This document shows positions 3,591 through 11,629 of a stretch of 32,000 nucleotides of DNA, one piece after another. Origin of the DNA: Haloferax volcanii DS2 (GTDB lineage: Archaea > Halobacteriota > Halobacteria > Halobacteriales > Haloferacaceae); the NCBI RefSeq assembly GCF_000025685.1, contig NC_013967.1, positions 600,001 through 632,000 on the forward strand. The letters are read 5' to 3'. Both the position numbers and the translations under genes were made by a program. The stretch's first letter is position 1. Every line of letters begins with the position of its first letter. The notes beneath the pieces were generated by a model. The model saw nothing but the letters and a program-made list of their open reading frames with translations, ran no database searches and was not told the DNA's origin.

Positions 3591-4046
3591 TCAGTCGCGG
3601 TCGAACGCCGTCTCCCGCTCCGTCTCGCCCGCTTTGCCTTCGCGTCGCCGCGAGGCCGCCGACTCCCGGGCGTCCGCGACCGTCTCCGTCTCCAACAGTC
3701 GCTCGACTTTCGCCTCGAACTCCTCCTCTGAGAGTTCGCCTGTCGCGTAGCGCCGCCGGAGCGTTTCGAGCGCGTCTTCGGTCTCGGTCGTCATCGACTC
3801 GGACGCGTCGTAGCCGCGGCGGGACTCGTAGATGCGGACGAGGGCGAGTGCGGCGGGGAGCACGCCCGCAAAGCCGACCGGGAAGACGATCCAGAACCAC
3901 CACTCCCCGAGCGCGAGTAGGCCGAAGCCGACCAGAAAGATGAGCGCCACGACGACGCCGGCGACCAACTCTTGGAGCGGCGAATCGTCATCGTCGTCGC
4001 TCGCGTCCTCGACGGCGTCGTCGACGACGCGCTCCGCGTCGGTCAT
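3591..4046 (-). CDS. SHOCT-domain membrane protein (acidic N-terminus, 2 TM, C-terminal SHOCT motif)
   Basis: 151-aa ORF with two hydrophobic helices. LETLRRRYATGELSEEEFEAKVERLL matches the SHOCT short C-terminal domain pattern. Confidence 0.75.
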   Translation of the reverse strand: MTDAERVVDDAVEDASDDDDDSPLQELVAGVVVALIFLVGFGLLALGEWWFWIVFPVGFAGVLPAALALVRIYESRRGYDASESMTTETEDALETLRRRYATGELSEEEFEAKVERLLETETVADARESAASRRREGKAGETERETAFDRD

Positions 4047-4113
4047 CGGTCTCCTCCACGACGACGGTCGTACATAGTGCTCTAACGTGTCCGCGAGCTA
4101 ACGACTGTTTCGC

Positions 4114-4118
4114 AAAAA
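4114..4118 (-). terminator. Oligo-T tract (T5 on the minus strand), candidate aspS transcript terminator
   Basis: AAAAA on the plus strand at 4114-4118. It is the only T-run of 5 or more I saw between the aspS stop and the next gene. Archaeal terminators are oligo-T tracts. Confidence 0.3.
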
Positions 4119-4148
4119 TGGGGTCGCGTCGGTGGGGTGCGCCGTCGC

Positions 4149-4169
4149 CTCGGGCGACAGGCGCTGGCG
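4149..4169 (-). repeat. aspS 3'-end ghost copy D (partial: RQRLSP, with the stop replaced by GAG)
   Basis: The minus strand reads CGC CAG CGC CTG TCG CCC GAG. It is embedded in the 28-nt block 4139-4166, which matches block 4298-4325 with 1 mismatch. The block is itself an imperfect palindrome (hairpin). Confidence 0.6.
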
Positions 4170-4222
4170 GGCTGACGAGACTCGCGTGCGCTCGTCTCGT
4201 TGGCTCGCCAGGTCTTCGGCCC

Positions 4223-4255
4223 TTACGGGCTCAGACGCTGGCGATCACGCGGGAA
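4223..4255 (-). repeat. aspS 3'-end ghost copy C ([13 protein letters not shown])
   Basis: The minus strand reads TTC CCG CGT GAT CGC CAG CGT CTG AGC CCG TAA. This is the same 10 aa plus stop as the real aspS terminus, with 7 of 30 nt different and all differences synonymous. Confidence 0.7.
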
Positions 4256-4307
4256 CTCGGTCGCGGCAAAGCCGCTCCCGGCTCCCGCGCTCGTGTTGCG
4301 CCGTCGC

Positions 4308-4343
4308 CTAGGGCGACAGGCGCTGCCGGTCGCGCGGGAACAC
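4308..4343 (-). repeat. aspS 3'-end ghost copy B ([14 protein letters not shown])
   Basis: The minus strand reads GTG TTC CCG CGC GAC CGG CAG CGC CTG TCG CCC TAG. It has 8 of 30 nt different from the functional terminus, all synonymous, including AGT versus TCG for Ser and AGA versus CGG for Arg. Confidence 0.7.
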
Positions 4344-4397
4344 CGTCGGACTCACGTCGTTCGTCCGACGAGCACCCACTCGAAGAAACGCCTTCGT

Positions 4398-5702
4398 CTA
4401 CGGACTCAGGCGTTGTCTGTCTCGCGGGAACAGCACAGCTTCTCGGATGTTCTCCAGTCCGAGCATCGTCATGATGAGCCGCTCGCCGCCGAGCCCGAAG
4501 CCGGCGTGCGGGGGCATGCCGTACTTGAACATCTTCGTGTAGTACTCGAACGCGTCGGGGTCGAGCCCCTGCTGCTCAAAGCCGGCGACGAGGTGGTCGA
4601 AGCGGTGTTCACGCTGGCCGCCCGAGACGAGCTCCATGTTCGGGTGCATCATGTCGAAGCCCGTCGAGAGCGTCTCGTCGTCGTCGTGGTCCTTGATGTA
4701 GAACGGCTTGATTTCGCTGGGCCAGTCGGTGATGAAGTAGTGCTCGCCGACGTCCTCGCCGAGCGCCTTCTCGCCCTCGGTGGGGAGGTCGTCGCCCCAG
4801 ACGAGCTGTTCGTCGAGTTCGCCCGTGGCGTTGATGCGCTCGATGGCCTCCTCGTAGGTGAGCCGCGGGAACTCGCCGGACGGCGCTTCGAACTCCTCTT
4901 CGAGACCGAGCGCTTCGAGCTCGTCCTGGCAGTTCTCCTCGACGGCCTCGTAGGCGGCCGTGACGACGGCCTCACAGACGTCCATCGCTTCCGTGTGGTC
5001 GATGAACGCCGACTCGAAGTCGATGGAAGTCGCCTCGTTGAGGTGGCGGGGCGTGTTGTGCTCTTCGGCGCGGAAGATGGGGCCGACCTCGAAGACGCGT
5101 TCGAGTCCGGAGCCGACCATCAGCTGTTTGAACAGCTGCGGCGACTGGTTCATGAACGCTTCCTGGCCGAAGTAGGTGATGGGGAACAGCTCGGTGCCGC
5201 CCTCGGTCCCCGTGGCGACGATTTTCGGCGTGTTGATTTCGGTCGCGCGGAGGTCGCGGAACTTGTCGCGGACGGCGCGCTGGACCTCGGCGCGAATCTC
5301 GAAGATTGCCTTCACTTCGTCCTTGCGGAGGTCGAGCGTGCGGTTGTCGAGGCGCGTCGAGAGCTCGGCGTCGACCTTGCCGGAGGGGTCGAGCGGGAGC
5401 TGCGCCTCGGCCTCGGCGATGACGTCGAGGCTCTCGGGCGTGACTTCGACGCCCGTCGGCGCGCGCGGCTCTTCGTCGACCTCGCCGGTCACGGAGATGA
5501 CGCTCTCGCGGTGGACGCCCAGACCCGTCTCGACGAGGTCGTCGTCCATCTCGTCTTTCTCGAACTTGACCTGAATCTTGCCGGAGGTGTCCCGGAGAAT
5601 CAGAAACGCGATGCCGCCGAGGTCACGGACTTCGTGGACCCAGCCGGCGACGGTGACCGTGTCACCGGGCTCGGCGTCGGCCGTGTACGTTCGGTTTCGC
5701 AT
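4398..5702 (-). CDS. aspS: Aspartate--tRNA ligase, archaeal type (probably non-discriminating Asp-tRNA(Asp/Asn) synthetase)
   Basis: 434 aa from ATG 5702 ([38 protein letters not shown]). Class II motifs [21 protein letters not shown] and GFGLGGERL are present. A TATA-like TTTAAG sits 27 nt upstream of 5702, so the 34-codon ORF extension to 5804 was rejected. Confidence 0.93.
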
Positions 5703-5726
5703 ACGACGTGGTTCCCGACCGTTCGT

Positions 5727-5732
5727 CTTAAA
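5727..5732 (-). promoter_or_regulatory. TATA-like box for aspS (leaderless spacing)
   Basis: The minus strand reads TTTAAG, centred ~27 nt upstream of ATG 5702. Confidence 0.4.
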
Positions 5733-5861
5733 CATCGTGTCTTCGCCTCGCTCGGAGGCGTTCGACCGTCCACTCTCACGCGCGTCGGGGCGAAACAGAG
5801 CCACGAGTTCGCGTGGTAGTCGGCACCGCGGTACTTAGTCCGAGGCGCACGTCGCTCCGGT

Positions 5862-9110: not shown

Positions 9111-11629
9111 TCCGCCGCCGTCTGCCACTTCCGAACCGTATCCGCACCAACGCCTTCGACTTTCGCCGCGATGTCGTCGGGTTCGGACGCCTTCAGCGTC
9201 TTCACGTCCTCGATGCCGGCGTCCTTCAGCTTCTCGGCGGTCTTCGCGCCGATGCCGTTGATGCTCTCTAACTCGGAACCGCCCTCGCCGTTCTGCTGGG
9301 CTTGGTACTCGCGGTAGTTGCAGATGGGACAGCCGAGTTCCCACGGCTCGCGGTCGCCCTCGTACGTAATCCGGAGTTCGGGCAGGTCGTGTTCCTCGCA
9401 GGACTCGTCCGTCACCTCGATGTCGCCGCGACGGGGTAGCGGCAGCGAGTAGTCGCAGTCGGGGTAGCGGGTACAGCCGACGAGCCGGGAGCCGGAGCGG
9501 AGGCGCTTGATGGCGAGTTCGCCGTCGTGTTCTTCGCCGCACTCGGGACACGTCCCGATGACGAGGTCGTCTTCCTCGTCGGCCTCCTCGGCCTTACAGA
9601 GCGGACAGCCGTGGACGAACGTCTTGCGCCCGGCGAGCATCTTGATGTGGTGGAGGTCGTGGTCCTCGCAGGACTCTTCCATGATGAGCGGCTTCCCCGT
9701 GGAAGGAAGCGGCAGCGTGTAAGTGCAGTCTGGGTAGGAGTCACAGCCGATGAAGTACGAGCCGCGACGGCTCTTTCTGACGACGAGGTCGCCGCCGCAG
9801 TCCGGGCAGGTGCCGACCGTCTTGTCGGCCTTCAGCGAGTCTTGGAGCTGCTTACCGAGTTCCTCGCGGGACTCCATCAGCCCCTCGAACACCTCTCCGA
9901 GCATCTCTTTGGACTCCTCGGTCACGTCTTCGAGGGTGGCTTCGCCGCGGGCGATAGCCAGCATATCGGATTCGAGTTGCGAGGTCATCTCCTCGCTGAC
10001 GATGAGCTTCGCGAAGTCCTCGGAGGCCTCCACGACGGCCCGCGCGAGGCGGGTCGGTCGCGGCGGGTCGCTCTCGATGTAGCCGCGGTCGTAGAGCTTC
10101 TGAATCACGTCGTGGCGGGTCGCCTTCGTCCCGATGCCCATCTGTTCCATCGTTTCGATGAGCCGCGACTGGCCGTAGCGCCGCGGGGGCTGGGTCTGCT
10201 TGGCGTCGAGGTGCGTGTCGGACAGCACGAGCGACTCGCCTTCCTCGACGTCCGGCACGAACGACTCGCTGGAGTTGAAGTACGGGTACACGTCGTGGTA
10301 GCCGGCTTCGAGCAGGCGCTTGCCGTTTGCCTTCAGCGAGAGCCCCTCGACCTCGGCGACGACGCGGAGGTGCTCCCAGACGGCGTCCTCGGCGACGGTG
10401 GCGAAGAAGCGCCGGACGACGAGTTCGTACACGTCCCACTCGTCGTCTGAGAGGTCGGACGCCGAGGGGAGTTCGCCGGTCGGGTGAATCGGCGGGTGGT
10501 CGGTCGTCTCGTTGTCGCCCTCGGTCGGCTCGATTTCCTCCTGTTCGAGGAGGGATTCGGCGTCTTCCTTGAACCGGCGGTCGCCCTCGAACGCGCCGAG
10601 CAGTTCGCGCGGGTCGAGGTCGTCGGGGTACACCGTGTTGTCGGTCCGCGGGTAGGTGATGTAACCGGCCGTGTAGAGGTCCTCGGCGATGCTCATCGCC
10701 CGCTGGGCGGAGTAGCCGATAGAGCCGGCGGCCCGGATGAACTGCGTGGTGTTGAACGGGGCGGGCGGCGTGTCGGTCCGCGTGCGGCGGTTGACCGACG
10801 AGACCTCGGCGGCCTCGACGCCGAGGAGCGTCTGGTAGGCTTCCTCCGCGTCGTCTTCGTCCCAGATGCGCTCGGCTTCGGTGCCGTCGTCGTCGAGATA
10901 GAAGTACTGCGCCTCGAACGACTCGGCGTCGCCGTCGGCGTCTTTCGTCAGTTTGGAGAACAGCTCCCAGTAGTCTTCGGGGTCGAACGCGTCGATTTCG
11001 CGCTCGCGGTCGACGATGAGTTTCAGCGTCGGCCCCTGCACGCGGCCGACCGAGATGAAGTCGTTGCCGAGCTGGCGGGCCGAAAGCGAGAGGAAGCGCG
11101 TGAGCGCCGCCCCCCAGACGAGGTCGATAATCTGTCGGGCCTCGCCCGCGGCGGCGAGGTCGAAGTCGAGGTCGTCGGGGTTCTCGAACGCCTCCGTCAC
11201 CTCGCGGTTCGTAATCGAGGAAAACCGAACGCGGTCGACGGGCACGTCCTCGTTGACGTCGCGGACGAGTTCGTACGCCTCCTTGCCGATGAGTTCGCCC
11301 TCGCGGTCGTAGTCGGTCGCAATGGTAACCTTTCCCGCGCGGCGGGCGAGGCGGCGGAGCGCGGCGACGATGTTCTCCTGCGTGGGGTGTTTCTCGACGG
11401 GCGCGCCGATGAGTTCGACCGGCTCCACGTCGCGCCAGTCGTTGTACTCCGGCGGGAAGTCCACGCCGACGACGTGGCCCGACAGCCCGATACAGCGCTT
11501 GCCGCCCCACTTGTAGACGTTCACGCCGTTCATTCGCTCCGCGGAGGCGGTCTCGCCGCTCAGGATGTCGGCGATGCGCCTCGCGGCGTTGTCCTTCTCC
11601 GTGATGATGAGTTCCGGACCCCTGCTCAT
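9107..11629 (-). CDS. topA: DNA topoisomerase I (type IA) with four C-terminal zinc ribbons and helix-hairpin-helix motifs
   Basis: 840 aa from ATG 11629 (MSRGPELIITEKDNAARRIA, Toprim). Also has the ITYPRTD active-site Tyr motif, four CxxC...CxxC units and a terminal GIGAKTAEKL HhH. The 22-codon upstream extension was rejected. Confidence 0.95.
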   Translation of the reverse strand: MSRGPELIITEKDNAARRIADILSGETASAERMNGVNVYKWGGKRCIGLSGHVVGVDFPPEYNDWRDVEPVELIGAPVEKHPTQENIVAALRRLARRAGKVTIATDYDREGELIGKEAYELVRDVNEDVPVDRVRFSSITNREVTEAFENPDDLDFDLAAAGEARQIIDLVWGAALTRFLSLSARQLGNDFISVGRVQGPTLKLIVDREREIDAFDPEDYWELFSKLTKDADGDAESFEAQYFYLDDDGTEAERIWDEDDAEEAYQTLLGVEAAEVSSVNRRTRTDTPPAPFNTTQFIRAAGSIGYSAQRAMSIAEDLYTAGYITYPRTDNTVYPDDLDPRELLGAFEGDRRFKEDAESLLEQEEIEPTEGDNETTDHPPIHPTGELPSASDLSDDEWDVYELVVRRFFATVAEDAVWEHLRVVAEVEGLSLKANGKRLLEAGYHDVYPYFNSSESFVPDVEEGESLVLSDTHLDAKQTQPPRRYGQSRLIETMEQMGIGTKATRHDVIQKLYDRGYIESDPPRPTRLARAVVEASEDFAKLIVSEEMTSQLESDMLAIARGEATLEDVTEESKEMLGEVFEGLMESREELGKQLQDSLKADKTVGTCPDCGGDLVVRKSRRGSYFIGCDSYPDCTYTLPLPSTGKPLIMEESCEDHDLHHIKMLAGRKTFVHGCPLCKAEEADEEDDLVIGTCPECGEEHDGELAIKRLRSGSRLVGCTRYPDCDYSLPLPRRGDIEVTDESCEEHDLPELRITYEGDREPWELGCPICNYREYQAQQNGEGGSELESINGIGAKTAEKLKDAGIEDVKTLKASEPDDIAAKVEGVGADTVRKWQTAAD

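Follow-up and report, generated by a model that had tools for sequence, protein, structure and literature searches.

Silent copies of the aspS gene end form hairpin arrays in the 3′ untranslated region of Haloferax volcanii and other haloarchaea

The window, the whole stretch of 32,000 nt analysed here, represents positions 600001-632000 of the Haloferax volcanii DS2 chromosome. It carries aspS (HVO_0677), whose published coordinates, 604398..605702, equal the window coordinates plus 600000. Behind aspS are found two perfect silent copies of its last codons and one truncated copy. The term ghost is used here for a silent downstream copy of the last aspS codons, and the term cassette for any copy of the end, in use or silent. 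The genes and copies are as follows.

4398..5702, minus strand: aspS (HVO_0677), aspartate-tRNA(Asp/Asn) ligase, 434 aa (open reading frame translation; published name)
4398..4430, minus strand: cassette A, the end in current use, with the A-rich rare codons CGA, AGA, CAA and AGT (translation)
4308..4340, minus strand: ghost cassette B, with a perfect peptide and typical GC3 codons (translation)
4223..4255, minus strand: ghost cassette C, with a perfect peptide and the stop UAA (translation)
4149..4181, minus strand: ghost D, a terminal 'V-type' unit that reads VSSARQRLSPE, the full unit of the truncated copy
3591..4046, minus strand: HVO_0676, SHOCT-domain membrane protein, the downstream neighbour (Pfam SHOCT, 2.1e-9)

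HVO_0676 forms a conserved right border of the array and is transcribed separately, with its own transcript at 603541-604009.

The terminal peptide of aspS is encoded, all on the minus strand, by 4430-4398, 4340-4308 and 4255-4223. Copies A and B differ at 8/33 nt, A and C at 8/33 and B and C at 9/33, which amounts to 7-8 of the 30 coding nt, but the translations of the three copies are identical, i.e., every difference is synonymous, as had been noted in a sequence-only reading of this DNA. Ghost D has the head GUCUCG in place of the FPR codons, followed by a tail that reads ARQRLSP and a stop mutated to GAG. The repeat of an upstream block by D, put in that reading at 28 nt, extends over 33 nt (4138-4170 versus 4297-4329) with 94% identity. 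The probability that a random 33-mer of the same composition encodes the peptide plus stop is 4.4e-14, and among 5000 dinucleotide shuffles of the 297-nt downstream region none exceeded 7/11 matches. The copy array is real and chance is excluded; the three extra copies of the sequence-only reading stand where it had placed them. AGR codons, one of which is in cassette A, are nearly missing from most other conserved Arg columns of aspS. A diversity-generating retroelement with template and variable repeats was considered and rejected: the differences between A and B include G-to-C and T-to-G changes and are not adenine-specific, and either copy is functional in different species.

The phenomenon is class-wide in Halobacteria. 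In a sample of one genome per species, 98 ghosts were detected in 61 of 81 haloarchaeal aspS loci, from approximately 25 genera and at 1-4 per array, with 20/81 arrays having none. Related aspS loci had been named in the sequence-only reading as the place to look for copy-number differences, and both copy number and unit order do vary. Functional ends served as detection probes, with third-position variation tolerated somewhat better than other variation, and control regions yielded 0 false positives. Among 8513 open reading frame ends in 1.7 Mb, aspS alone stands out, plus one Rieske gene. A spacer profile scanned over the same 1.7 Mb gave 61 matches inside aspS arrays and 0 outside.

Units of the arrays have common features. 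All heads share an 8-nt core, TTCCCGCG, and core plus end cassette is repeated 1-4 times; direct repeats of the gene 3′ end with an identical core are thus present. The spacers are 17-60 nt in length and have a conserved, co-varying hairpin architecture. GTAG, which like CGTC is a tag of REP sequences, is present in many units, where it is simply CCG-TAG. Tandem near-identical units occur as 50-nt repeats at two loci (L038, L046) and as two-unit block duplications at two others (L006, L014). In many genera the array is closed by a V-type unit. Of 30 distinct V-type-like sequences, 17 keep DRQRLSP followed by a stop, and V-type units from different orders are 94% identical at first plus second codon positions at a third-position identity of 0.48, which is saturated. 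Such recurrence is not easily accounted for unless constraint has been long-lasting or exchange very frequent.

Other repeated structures were observed besides the aspS units. The Rieske gene of Halosimplex and Haloarcula has a ghost end of 14-58 codons. It follows a related, dispersed terminator module that is a T5..A5 palindrome. Hairpins with the loop motif GARCGnAGYGA are present at 37 other sites, and shuffled versions of the same loci have 9 altogether.

The ghosts display a coding-like signature. Over columns 10-33, the period-3 variability of ghosts, measured as entropy, matches that of functional ends, and constrained positions are violated in only 3.8% of cases. First and second positions are 94-96% conserved, and third positions are saturated. 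In Haloferax the minimum numbers of changes at codon positions 1/2/3 are 5/4/15 and 1/1/6. Ghosts alternate between AGY and TCN for Ser, CGN and AGR for Arg, and TAG, TAA and TGA for stop, as the genetic code allows. The exact terminal peptide is encoded by 30 of 91 distinct ghosts; the remainder are decayed versions rather than alternative designs, and some have frameshifts, lost stops or missense changes. Decay increases with depth in the array: intact tails number 40/61, 16/25, 4/9 and 0/3 at array positions 2 to 5.

Ghosts do not resemble the gene that they follow any more than they resemble other aspS genes. A ghost tail matches its own functional end at 17.9/24 nt and foreign ends at 17.6/24 (p = 0.59), with exact identity to the own end in only 3/98 ghosts. 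Given this equal similarity, both concerted evolution and gene conversion by the functional end were rejected. There is also no general relation of frame between ghost and gene. Copies A and B in the window are in the same frame at a 90-nt spacing without a stop between them, but this is not general: the 98 ghosts are spread uniformly over the three phases (33/31/34), the first ghost is in frame in 17/61 arrays, and stop-to-ghost spacings vary from 49 to 188 nt.

Comparisons between genomes indicate that the end in use has been switched. Ghost B is identical at 33/33 nt to the functional end of both Haloferax gibbonsii and Haloferax denitrificans, and the functional cassette A of the window is present as a ghost in H. 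denitrificans. Together with the period-3 variability, these identities support the earlier suggestion that the copies are once-functional ends that diverged elsewhere. The closest functional end to ghost C is from Haloprofundus (31/33), but a best match to the end of another genome is inflated by taking the maximum over 80 comparisons, and only the within-genus 33/33 matches are used here. Some aspS bodies are 99.1% identical, and yet 9/33 nt of their ends are different. The codon for the terminal Ser flips among AGT, TCG, AGC, TCT and TCA within a set of 16 Haloferax genomes, with four other Ser columns fixed, and pairwise end differences are bimodal, at 0-1 or at 4-10 nt, mostly 6-10. Ser mixing is informative only within Haloferax; across the class, AGY and TCN are mixed in four other conserved Ser columns too, and such mixing alone is therefore not proof of swaps. 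On the genus tree at least 8 end switches are needed. Cassette order differs as well, being A-B-C-D in H. volcanii versus B-A-E-F-V in H. denitrificans.

Exchange between genera is indicated by inserted modules. In Halobellus rufus, a Halobellus-type gene body is followed by a 92-nt Haloferax-type A module and then by a ghost that differs from the functional ends of its congeners by two or three synonymous changes only. Comparison of Halogeometricum pallidum with H. limi reveals the same inserted A module ahead of the native end. In two genera, then, a Haloferax-type module of 85-92 nt is located exactly ahead of the native end. Copies of the A module from three genera are near-identical and have sharp borders. 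The sequences were inspected directly, because indels make sliding-window identity beyond the stop codon unreliable. Serial replacement of the 3′ end had been proposed to proceed either by recombination with foreign alleles or by way of integrative elements. The first route is supported by the 99.1% identical bodies with different ends and by the A insertions; the second is not supported, with no integrase or displaced copy found within 10 kb in 80 genomes and no match to the cassette pattern in IMG/VR.

The 346-nt region folds with a z-score of -7.0 relative to shuffles, and local hairpin folds range from about -14 to -34 kcal/mol. As expected from the sequence-only reading, the copies overlap hairpins. 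Each ghost supplies a hairpin with its 5′ arm, and the stop codon falls within or beside the loop. Predicted hairpins and RNA ends are listed in the direction of transcription.

4373..4427, minus strand: hairpin H1_A, local fold -24.6 kcal/mol
4366, minus strand: proximal aspS mRNA 3′ end, giving a 32-nt 3′ UTR (Term-seq TTS CHR 604366, U motif flagged, mean coverage 906)
4341..4372, minus strand: spacer hairpin H2_a (CGUCGGAC / GUCCGACG), fold -15.9 kcal/mol
4283..4337, minus strand: hairpin H1_B, stop UAG in the loop, fold -34.1 kcal/mol
4256..4282, minus strand: spacer hairpin H2_d (GCGGC UUU GCCGC), fold -16.0 kcal/mol
4203..4246, minus strand: hairpin H1_C, CGCCAG-GUCU-GA-GCCC GUAA GGGC-GA-AGAC-CUGGCG, fold -26.7 kcal/mol
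4175..4200, minus strand: hairpin H2′ (ACGAGAC / GUCUCGU), fold -13.9 kcal/mol
4136..4169, minus strand: hairpin H1_D, the last hairpin before the terminator, fold -20.9 kcal/mol; repeats 4297-4329 at 94%
4112..4118, minus strand: T5 tract (4118-4114) and distal RNA 3′ end at 4112, giving a 286-nt 3′ UTR (Term-seq TTS CHR 604112)

H1_A has codons 2-10 of cassette A as its 5′ arm, the stop within its loop region and GUUUCUU (4388-4382) in its 3′ arm; in Halobellus rufus the H1_A module is a perfect 21-bp palindrome. The H2_a stem co-varies among species, with the unit architecture conserved. H2_d has an alternative longer pairing of CGCGGGA with UCCCGCG (4246-4292, fold -36.8 kcal/mol). Aligned homologues of H1_C display compensatory changes, and the H2′ stem, whose 3′ arm is the head of copy D, has double (compensatory) changes in 5/7 pairs across genera. 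Compensatory changes were found in 10/16 predicted pairs. The 3′ arm of the hairpins co-varies with the synonymous codon choices, and a 5′ arm pairs better with its cognate 3′ arm than with non-cognate ones (p = 2.6e-13 in functional units, 2e-7 in ghosts). Selection acts on the structure of the hairpins.

The array is transcribed. Published RNA-seq data place the aspS transcript at 604118-605693, and the published Term-seq site 604112, with a coverage of 1026 and a flagged U motif, has complete 3′ UTR coverage. It lies next to the sole T5 tract of the array. The whole array is the aspS 3′ UTR, with two RNA ends at +32 and +286, in agreement with the structured 3′ UTR ending at T5 that had been predicted; processing rather than termination could account for the +32 end. 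The array probably acts as a terminator and as a set of stability hairpins. The A-rich codons of cassette A pair with a U-rich 3′ arm beside the proximal RNA end, and this pairing may account for the odd codon choice. The pairing, the co-variation of the 3′ arms and the class-wide spread are what the sequence-only reading had missed.

An Rfam search of 3800-4800 at E <= 10 gave a best E-value of 0.86, with all hits far below gathering scores, and ARAGORN detected no tRNA, tmRNA or tRNA-like gene in the window. A scan for sigma-70 promoters and intrinsic terminators was uninformative for an archaeon. Several motifs were looked for by eye and discarded as inconsistent across unit types: bulge-helix-bulge splicing motifs, a K-turn reading of the tandem G-A internal loop, a mimic of the tRNA-Asp anticodon, and a T-loop-like GGTTCGAGACC in the 50-nt units.

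It is proposed, with a probability of roughly 0.6 and largely on comparative grounds, that hairpin modules have been stacked and shuffled by recombination, partly horizontal, and that the ghosts are former or foreign functional ends, because the differences between copies arose under coding selection. In the primary hairpin the last 8-10 codons of the gene form the 5′ arm, with the stop in or beside the loop and a complementary 3′ arm following. Any duplicate of the hairpin carries a spare gene end because the codons of the gene themselves make up the 5′ arm. Comparative patterns suggest that recombination at the short conserved heads (..TG TTCCCGCG) and at cassette bodies leads to gain, loss and re-ordering of modules, both within a genome and with DNA of other haloarchaea. 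The cassette fused to the gene would be the functional end and the others demoted ends in slow decay, any of which might be promoted again through deletion of one unit. The synonymous differences would therefore have arisen during use, in this or another lineage. As to the first duplications, the sequence at the hairpin base, CCCGCG(G/C)G, comes close to being self-complementary; the flanks of a hairpin would thus be short direct repeats favouring duplication or deletion of a unit. Duplication through this base predicts a second unit with the head GTC-CCG-CGG-GAC, and the V-type head, which is widespread, is similar to it. At the RNA level, the array provides the aspS mRNA with two alternative 3′ ends. 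The minimum switch rate, approximately 7 per third-position substitution per site, is below the expected neutral decay of a ghost tail (~16-20 destructive sites); with approximately 60% of ghosts intact, there must therefore be either much faster hidden turnover or an additional constraint on ghosts.

Such a constraint might consist of direct selection of ghosts as extra sites to which a factor specific for the aspS stop-codon hairpin, such as AspRS itself or an RNA-binding protein, would bind. A factor relying on nucleotides frozen by coding selection would produce period-3 variability in sites that had never been gene ends. Ghost conservation does mirror functional ends column by column, V-type tails are intact across orders even though their heads cannot encode FPR, intactness is above the simple neutral-turnover estimate, and structural selection on the hairpins is as expected. 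This explanation is nevertheless unlikely: it accounts neither for block switching among near-identical genes nor for ghosts that equal the functional ends of sister species, the code-like alternation of Ser, Arg and stop codons would be an odd tolerance for a binding protein, and one would not expect 20/81 arrays to lack a ghost. A history in which the terminator hairpin was only duplicated locally in tandem and then drifted, with neither exchange nor function, agrees with the tandem identical or near-identical units at the four loci mentioned above and with the frameshifts, lost stops and missense changes of some ghosts. But drift would affect all codon positions equally, whereas third positions are saturated and first and second positions are 94-96% kept, and the equal similarity to own and foreign ends, with 3/98 ghosts identical to their own end, also contradicts it. 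As a general account it has very little probability, being contradicted for most ghosts, yet it is the likely origin of the youngest units. Translation of ghosts through readthrough, as tiny open reading frames, or by ribosomes that bypass the hairpinned stop and land on a matching ghost codon would explain a period-3 conservation that includes the stop codon and would suit the open frame from A to B in the window. In phage T4 gene 60 a hairpin with a stop codon at the take-off site is a known bypass signal, which the aspS hairpin resembles. However, ghost frames are evenly distributed, first ghosts are in frame in only 17/61 arrays and no conserved start codon is found ahead of ghosts. A benefit of translation is not apparent because the product would be identical to normal AspRS. 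Programmed readthrough or bypass was rejected on the grounds that there is no fixed frame or stop-to-copy relation (offsets 33/31/34; 49 to 188 nt), and translation in any form is exceedingly improbable.

Mobile DNA offers two further explanations. Stacked copies of a gene 3′ end are the classic signature of serial integration, and viruses, plasmids or ICE-like elements could have entered the aspS 3′ end, brought a substitute end and later been deleted to att-like copies. The ssrA islands of Dehalococcoides are an example of serial integration at a gene 3′ end (PMC3146451), and a review treats the accretion of IMEs and CIMEs as well as cis-mobilizable elements (PMC5704250). The 8-nt core common to all heads and the discrete, sharp-bordered module of Halobellus rufus would fit such scars; the short co-varying spacers, however, are unlike random deletion remnants, and in 80 genomes the downstream interval from 400 nt to 10 kb contained no cassette copy. 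A Pfam search downstream of one locus with a synteny break (L011) did not find an integrase, the genes there being PIN, SHOCT, pantoate kinase (GHMP kinase) and PPS. Two degenerate cassette patterns gave 0 matches in 2.9 million IMG/VR contigs. With blastn, the 346-nt region (4100-4445) had no match in phage records and, in plasmid records, one 51-nt match inside an acyl-CoA ligase gene that was judged to be chance, in searches that a 33-nt attP could escape. Integrative scars are therefore very improbable. Somewhat less remote, but still improbable, is a dedicated mobile element, a 50-92 nt non-autonomous hairpin comparable to REP, PATE or MITE sequences that is moved by a trans-acting hairpin-DNA enzyme, targets the aspS end and carries a replacement end. 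The near-identity of the A module in three genera with sharp borders speaks for it, as do the GARCGnAGYGA loop-motif hairpins (37 other sites versus 9 in shuffled copies) and the dispersed T5..A5 palindrome tied to the second ghost end, that of the Rieske gene. The unit profile, however, is without a match outside aspS arrays in 1.7 Mb, the units have neither terminal inverted repeats nor a target duplication of fixed length, no transposase is linked to the array, and homologous recombination through conserved flanks suffices for the Halobellus rufus insertion.

Stacking and shuffling of modules by recombination remains the preferred explanation. A bolder reading, doubtful but worth stating, is that the modules, above all A with its U-rich terminator arm, may be self-propagating 'gene-end replacement' elements of 50-92 nt and of a new kind. 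These would be integrase-less and would use recombination, in haloarchaea that are polyploid and mate, to home to an essential gene at its conserved terminus, spread between genera and act on other genes too (Rieske), with spare ends kept translatable by recurrent promotion. An element of this type would be hard to lose because it carries the stop codon.

A literature search found no prior description of haloarchaeal aspS gene-end arrays. HVO_0677 provides an experimentally tractable case in a model archaeon, H. volcanii. The array is untranslated, non-coding DNA with a clear coding signature, which may serve as a record, finer than the gene level, of recombination and horizontal exchange. It appears that an essential gene can exchange its last codons, stop, terminator hairpin and 3′ UTR length as one block with no change in the protein. 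This bears on the evolution of archaeal 3′ UTRs and terminators, on the limits that RNA structure sets on synonymous sites and on haloarchaeal exchange of very short DNA. In annotation, ghost ends call for caution because they will mislead pseudogene callers and dN/dS scans. Should the modules be mobile, they would represent a new persistence route for a minimal element, that of becoming the end of an essential gene.

Among known systems, serial site-specific integration is similar in several respects. In att arrays at tRNA, tmRNA and protein genes, as in ICE/IME/CIME accretion and the Dehalococcoides ssrA islands, the newcomer brings a substitute 3′ end and the gene, which is essential and conserved, keeps its function (PMC3146451, PMC5704250). 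Older ends are displaced downstream as direct repeats, and the array records its own history. The aspS arrays differ in that no integrase, element body or extrachromosomal counterpart was detected. Their units, each with a conserved hairpin, measure only 50-92 nt, and identity common to all copies is restricted to the 8-nt core. Ordinary homologous or microhomology recombination appears to be the means of exchange.

REP/BIME arrays in bacterial 3′ UTRs are likewise tandem imperfect palindromes situated right after a stop codon and co-transcribed with the upstream gene, and they are thought to act in termination and mRNA stability (PMC2817692, PMC3733652, PMC12306157). REPs, however, are dispersed in hundreds of copies, are located outside genes and are tied to RAYT transposases, whereas the aspS units overlap the coding end, have a codon-constrained arm and occur only at aspS in the 1.7 Mb tested; the one feature of theirs that is dispersed is the loop motif GARCGnAGYGA. 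Berkemer et al. 2020 (PMC7237163) described termination at U tracts in archaea, with alternative isoforms of the 3′ UTR. Both HVO_0677 RNA ends are flagged with a U-stretch motif and the distal one follows the T5 tract, but a 286-nt 3′ UTR of repeated gene-end hairpins corresponds to no described terminator type.

The silent-cassette systems pilE/pilS, vlsE and VSG consist of one expressed copy plus a store of promoterless partial silent copies, and recombination picks the expressed sequence. The aspS arrays resemble these in having an adjacent store of silent copies that stay translatable. The difference is that aspS cassettes encode one peptide and generate no protein variation; only the RNA hairpin and terminator context changes. 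For aspS cassettes no dedicated recombination machinery is known. In haloarchaeal mating, species barriers are low and homology-facilitated illegitimate recombination takes place. Reviews of this subject are available (PMC7776575, PMC12186497). The aspS case, known from sequence comparison, is distinguished by joins that recur at the same 8-12 nt head. The likeness would be in the products: foreign DNA anchored in a conserved gene and joined by short homology would leave a donor end, donor downstream DNA and a displaced recipient end.

The copies of the aspS end that lie behind the gene are the 5′ arms of a transcribed hairpin array, in which the arms co-vary, the functional end switches as a block and modules have been inserted across genera. 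In the window, the end in use and the spare, non-translated copies (ghosts) are:

4430-4398, minus strand: cassette A, the end in use; translates to the aspS terminal peptide
4340-4308, minus strand: ghost cassette B; translation identical to A
4255-4223, minus strand: ghost cassette C; translation identical to A
4181-4149, minus strand: ghost D, a shortened fourth unit; translates to VSSARQRLSPE

The sequence-only reading had described A, B and C as encoding one peptide with synonymous differences and D as repeating part of the B region, and all of this is borne out: A, B and C differ mutually at 8, 8 and 9 of 33 nt with unchanged translations, and block 4297-4329 recurs in the D block at 94% identity. 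The shuffling test that it had proposed excludes chance. None of 5000 dinucleotide shuffles of the 297 nt downstream of aspS scored above 7 of 11 matches, and the probability of obtaining the terminal peptide and stop from a random 33-mer of like composition is 4.4e-14. The A-B spacing is exactly 90 nt (4308-4400, minus strand) with no stop codon between, so that reading through the aspS UAG would extend the protein by 30 residues, again up to the terminal peptide. Long antisense open reading frames (4200-5819 and 4118-4474, plus strand) face aspS and the array; these are typical high-GC artefacts, and in the available part of the published transcript table nothing antisense appears from 604009 to 604398.

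HVO_0677 (AspS) is published at 604398-605702 on the minus strand (window 4398-5702). Term-seq maps two RNA 3′ ends for it, at 604366 (32-nt 3′ UTR, mean coverage 906) and 604112 (286-nt 3′ UTR, mean coverage 1026), both intergenic, flagged with a U-stretch motif and with complete 3′ UTR coverage (Berkemer et al., 2020, PMC7237163, Supplementary Table 1). Mixed RNA-seq gives a single aspS transcript, 604118-605693, with HVO_0676, the SHOCT gene that follows, on a transcript of its own (Laass et al., 2019, PMC6490895). The entire ghost array is therefore aspS 3′ UTR, as had been predicted from its structure and from the T5 tract beyond the last copy (4118-4114), which is the site of the distal RNA end. 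The proximal end lies shortly past the first hairpin and may be a processing site. The array region folds more stably than its shuffles (z = -7.0) and has no Rfam or tRNA match. The published transcript start, 605693 (dRNA-seq and RNA-seq), is 9 nt inside the annotated aspS start at 605702 (window 5693-5702, minus strand), and either the start codon or the transcription start call may need revising.

A codon-blind, nucleotide-level search of 81 haloarchaeal aspS loci (the window and 80 others, one genome per species) found 98 ghost ends, in arrays at 61 of the loci, with zero false positives in control regions; the detection is probe-based and slightly favours third-position variation. Ghosts are present in 16 of 16 Haloferax, and also in Haloarcula, Halosimplex, Halorussus, Halobellus, Natrialba, Natronococcus and others. 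Among 91 distinct ghost sequences, 30 encode the aspS terminal peptide exactly. The signature is confined to aspS, plus one Rieske gene, among 8513 open reading frame ends (1.7 Mb), and a spacer profile matched 61 times inside arrays and 0 times outside. Literature searches found no earlier publication on these arrays. The Haloarcula japonica array (L035, about 11306-11435) contains one N and an exact ∼80-nt repeat of the first spacer, which reflects a very recent duplication or else a faulty assembly.

The ghosts had been taken for once-functional ends, and their variability agrees. Per column, the last eight codons (the tail) vary in ghosts as in functional ends: third positions hold 0.8-2.0 bits, and first and second positions mostly at most about 0.3 bits (outliers to 0.7), synonymous Ser, Arg and Leu classes excepted. 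Only 3.8% of constrained positions are violated, and one-type ghosts within Haloferax require minimum changes at codon positions 1/2/3 of 5/4/15 and 1/1/6. Translation by readthrough is excluded, since ghost frames relative to aspS are uniform (33/31/34) and the spacing varies between 49 and 188 nt; with frames random elsewhere, the in-frame A-B spacing in the window is probably coincidence. Nor do the ghosts stem mainly from recent duplication in place or from gene conversion by the functional end, because ghost tails are as similar to ends of other genomes (17.6/24) as to their own (17.9/24; p = 0.59), and just 3 of the 98 match their own functional end exactly. Intact tails fall with array depth (40/61, 16/25, 4/9, 0/3), the pattern that would be expected if older ends lie further back.

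The arrays are built from a small number of units, of which A and B in the window are type I, C is type II and D is V-type (a terminal unit with an altered cassette start, or head, that reads VSxDRQRLSP-stop as a whole):

Type I module, 85-92 nt: end cassette; complementary 3′ arm (hairpin H1, stop in or near the loop); linker, e.g. GAGCGGGAGC; small hairpin H2; ..G(T/A)G; next TTCCCGCG
Type II module, about 70 nt: Ser-AGY cassette; arm GGCGAAGACnTGG; hairpin H2′ (CCAGCGAGAC-loop-GTCTCGCnGG); V-type unit; T run
50-nt units: Haloarcula and Halosimplex

The H2 stem is variable and co-varying, and the 3′ arm of H2′ is itself the head of the terminal V-type unit (GTCTCGnnnGAC..). That the copies overlap hairpins, as first noted by eye, is upheld by local folds of -14 to -34 kcal/mol in the window array. 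Among the 16 pairs predicted for type II, 10 have undergone compensatory double changes across 22 aligned units. A 5′ arm pairs better with the 3′ arm of its own unit than with those of other units (p = 2.6e-13 for functional units, 2e-7 for ghosts), an advantage that persists inside one Ser-codon class. Synonymous choices at the gene end are mirrored downstream: CAA CGT CTG with GACGTTG, CAA CGA TTG with AATCGTTG and CAG AGA CTG with AGTCTCTG. These patterns show the array hairpins to be under selection. The 50-nt tandem units (L046, L038, L029, L023) start with GCGGTTCGAGACCG, a possible 4-bp stem with a 7-nt TTCGAGA loop that is tRNA T-arm-like.

Serial end replacement, or recombination with foreign alleles, had been suggested, and the comparison of related loci supports it. 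Across 16 Haloferax genomes the terminal Ser is AGT, TCG, AGC, TCT or TCA, against no variation in four further conserved Ser columns. Any two ends differ either by 0-1 nt or by 4-10 nt (mostly 6-10), a bimodal distribution. Between H. prahovense and H. gibbonsii the aspS bodies share 99.1% identity (97.6% at third positions), yet 9 of 33 nt are different in the end. Cassettes have switched at least 8 times on a genus tree with a total length of 1.13 third-position substitutions per site. Ghost B of the window is identical (33/33) to the end that H. gibbonsii and H. denitrificans use, and functional A stands second in the H. denitrificans array (order B-A-E-F-V). Copy number differs between species as well: a clean 90-nt indel of the A module, with (C/G)TGTTCCC repeats on its flanks, separates H. 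prahovense from H. gibbonsii. In Halobellus rufus the aspS body is typical of Halobellus until about 6-10 nt ahead of the head. A 92-nt module near-identical to the Haloferax A module follows, with H1 a perfect 21-bp palindrome, then a ghost in which just two or three synonymous sites depart from the ends used by H. clavatus and a Halobellus MAG, after which Halobellus-type sequence resumes. Halogeometricum pallidum has an A module ahead of a ghost 32/33 identical to the H. limi functional end. Judged from this arrangement, both are direct examples of a foreign module demoting a native end, for which homologous recombination would suffice, its left join falling in the conserved gene end and its right one in a cassette. 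Haloarchaea are known to mate, to be polyploid and to have low species barriers (reviewed in PMC7776575, PMC12186497).

The other proposed route, integrative elements carrying substitute ends, was not substantiated. No cassette was found beyond the compact array within 10 kb at any examined locus, no integrase was present among the downstream genes, and synteny is kept (aspS, SHOCT gene, pantoate kinase, phosphopantothenate synthetase). The cassette patterns had zero matches in IMG/VR, and blastn of the 346-nt region 4100-4445 gave no phage-record match and no meaningful plasmid-record match. Some Haloferax species carry an inserted PIN-domain gene, in convergent orientation, that parts the array from the SHOCT gene (L011, 11414-11938, minus strand), and sequence resembling this insert follows the arrays of L012 and L019; the right border of the array is therefore a synteny break point.

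Turnover of hairpin units could instead proceed as follows. The CCCGCG(G/C)G hairpin base is nearly self-complementary and would therefore create short direct repeats flanking each hairpin, through which slippage or unequal recombination could duplicate or delete whole units. Duplication through the base predicts a second-unit head GTC-CCG-CGG-GAC, which the observed V-type heads (GTCTCGCGGGAC, GTCCCGCCGGAT, GTTCCGCAGGAC) resemble. Cassettes would diverge synonymously only during fusion to the gene, and recombination inside arrays and between lineages would then stack them. Ghost-promoting deletions would be viable only with an intact ghost, giving apparent purifying selection on cassette lineages. 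The atypical codons pointed out in A also find a place here: AGR is nearly absent from most other aspS Arg columns, and a U-rich arm adjoining the +32 RNA end, GUUUCUU (4388-4382), is the pairing partner of the rare A-rich codons (AGA, CAA), so that module A may be optimised for termination. The case for array turnover is wholly comparative, and the minimum switch rate, at about 7 for each unit of neutral divergence, falls short of the rate at which ghost tails should decay. The ∼60% of ghosts that are intact thus need faster hidden turnover or added constraint, which leaves selection of ghosts as binding sites a live rival explanation. That the arrays constitute a new type of integrase-less gene-end replacement module is tentative, with a probability of roughly one in four.

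Halosimplex and Haloarcula amylovorans have, at a distance of ∼6-8 kb from aspS, a Rieske-type gene with a ferredoxin-like product (...CPKHGSMFDACSGDCDNG...GPSSTSHVGF-stop) that is followed by a ghost of its last 14-58 codons. Differences are mostly synonymous (3/3 at third positions in L025). Between gene and ghost is a palindromic module of 130-190 nt that contains hairpins and runs of T5-6 and A5-6; neither module nor ghost is present in L020 and L026, two congeners. One hairpin of the module has the loop GAGCGnAGCGA, also found in aspS H2 hairpins. Across the 81 loci, both strands, GARCGnAGYGA-loop hairpins with variable stems occur at 37 sites outside aspS arrays, against 9 in total when these loci are shuffled; the loop includes the GCGAAGC mini-hairpin motif, and several sites lie just upstream of Haloarcula aspS. 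The palindromic module is itself dispersed: at ∼100 nt (hairpin, T5-6, T5-6, GGTTCCCnCAGG-hairpin-CGAGGAAACCCGA, A5-6), it was observed between gene ends in several genera, and looks like a bidirectional terminator or MITE-like element. Locations are:

Rieske ghosts: L016 2426-3740, plus strand; L025 4597-5458; L038; L027 8270-8864
Dispersed palindromic module, minus strand: L016 18627; L018 2759; L038 17275; L078 5221 and 6537
Related palindromic copies: L061 19181, plus strand; L069 16688, plus strand, and 4658, minus strand

The Rieske ghost and the dispersed modules hint at a more general gene-end process.

The aspS arrays share their layout with expression-site/silent-cassette systems, but give no protein variation. 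In position and shape they are like REP/BIME arrays (PMC2817692, PMC3733652), from which they differ in that the units are not dispersed and overlap the coding end. Serial integration at gene 3′ ends (PMC3146451, PMC5704250) is defined by an integrase and element that are absent here, but its logic is matched by that of the aspS arrays.
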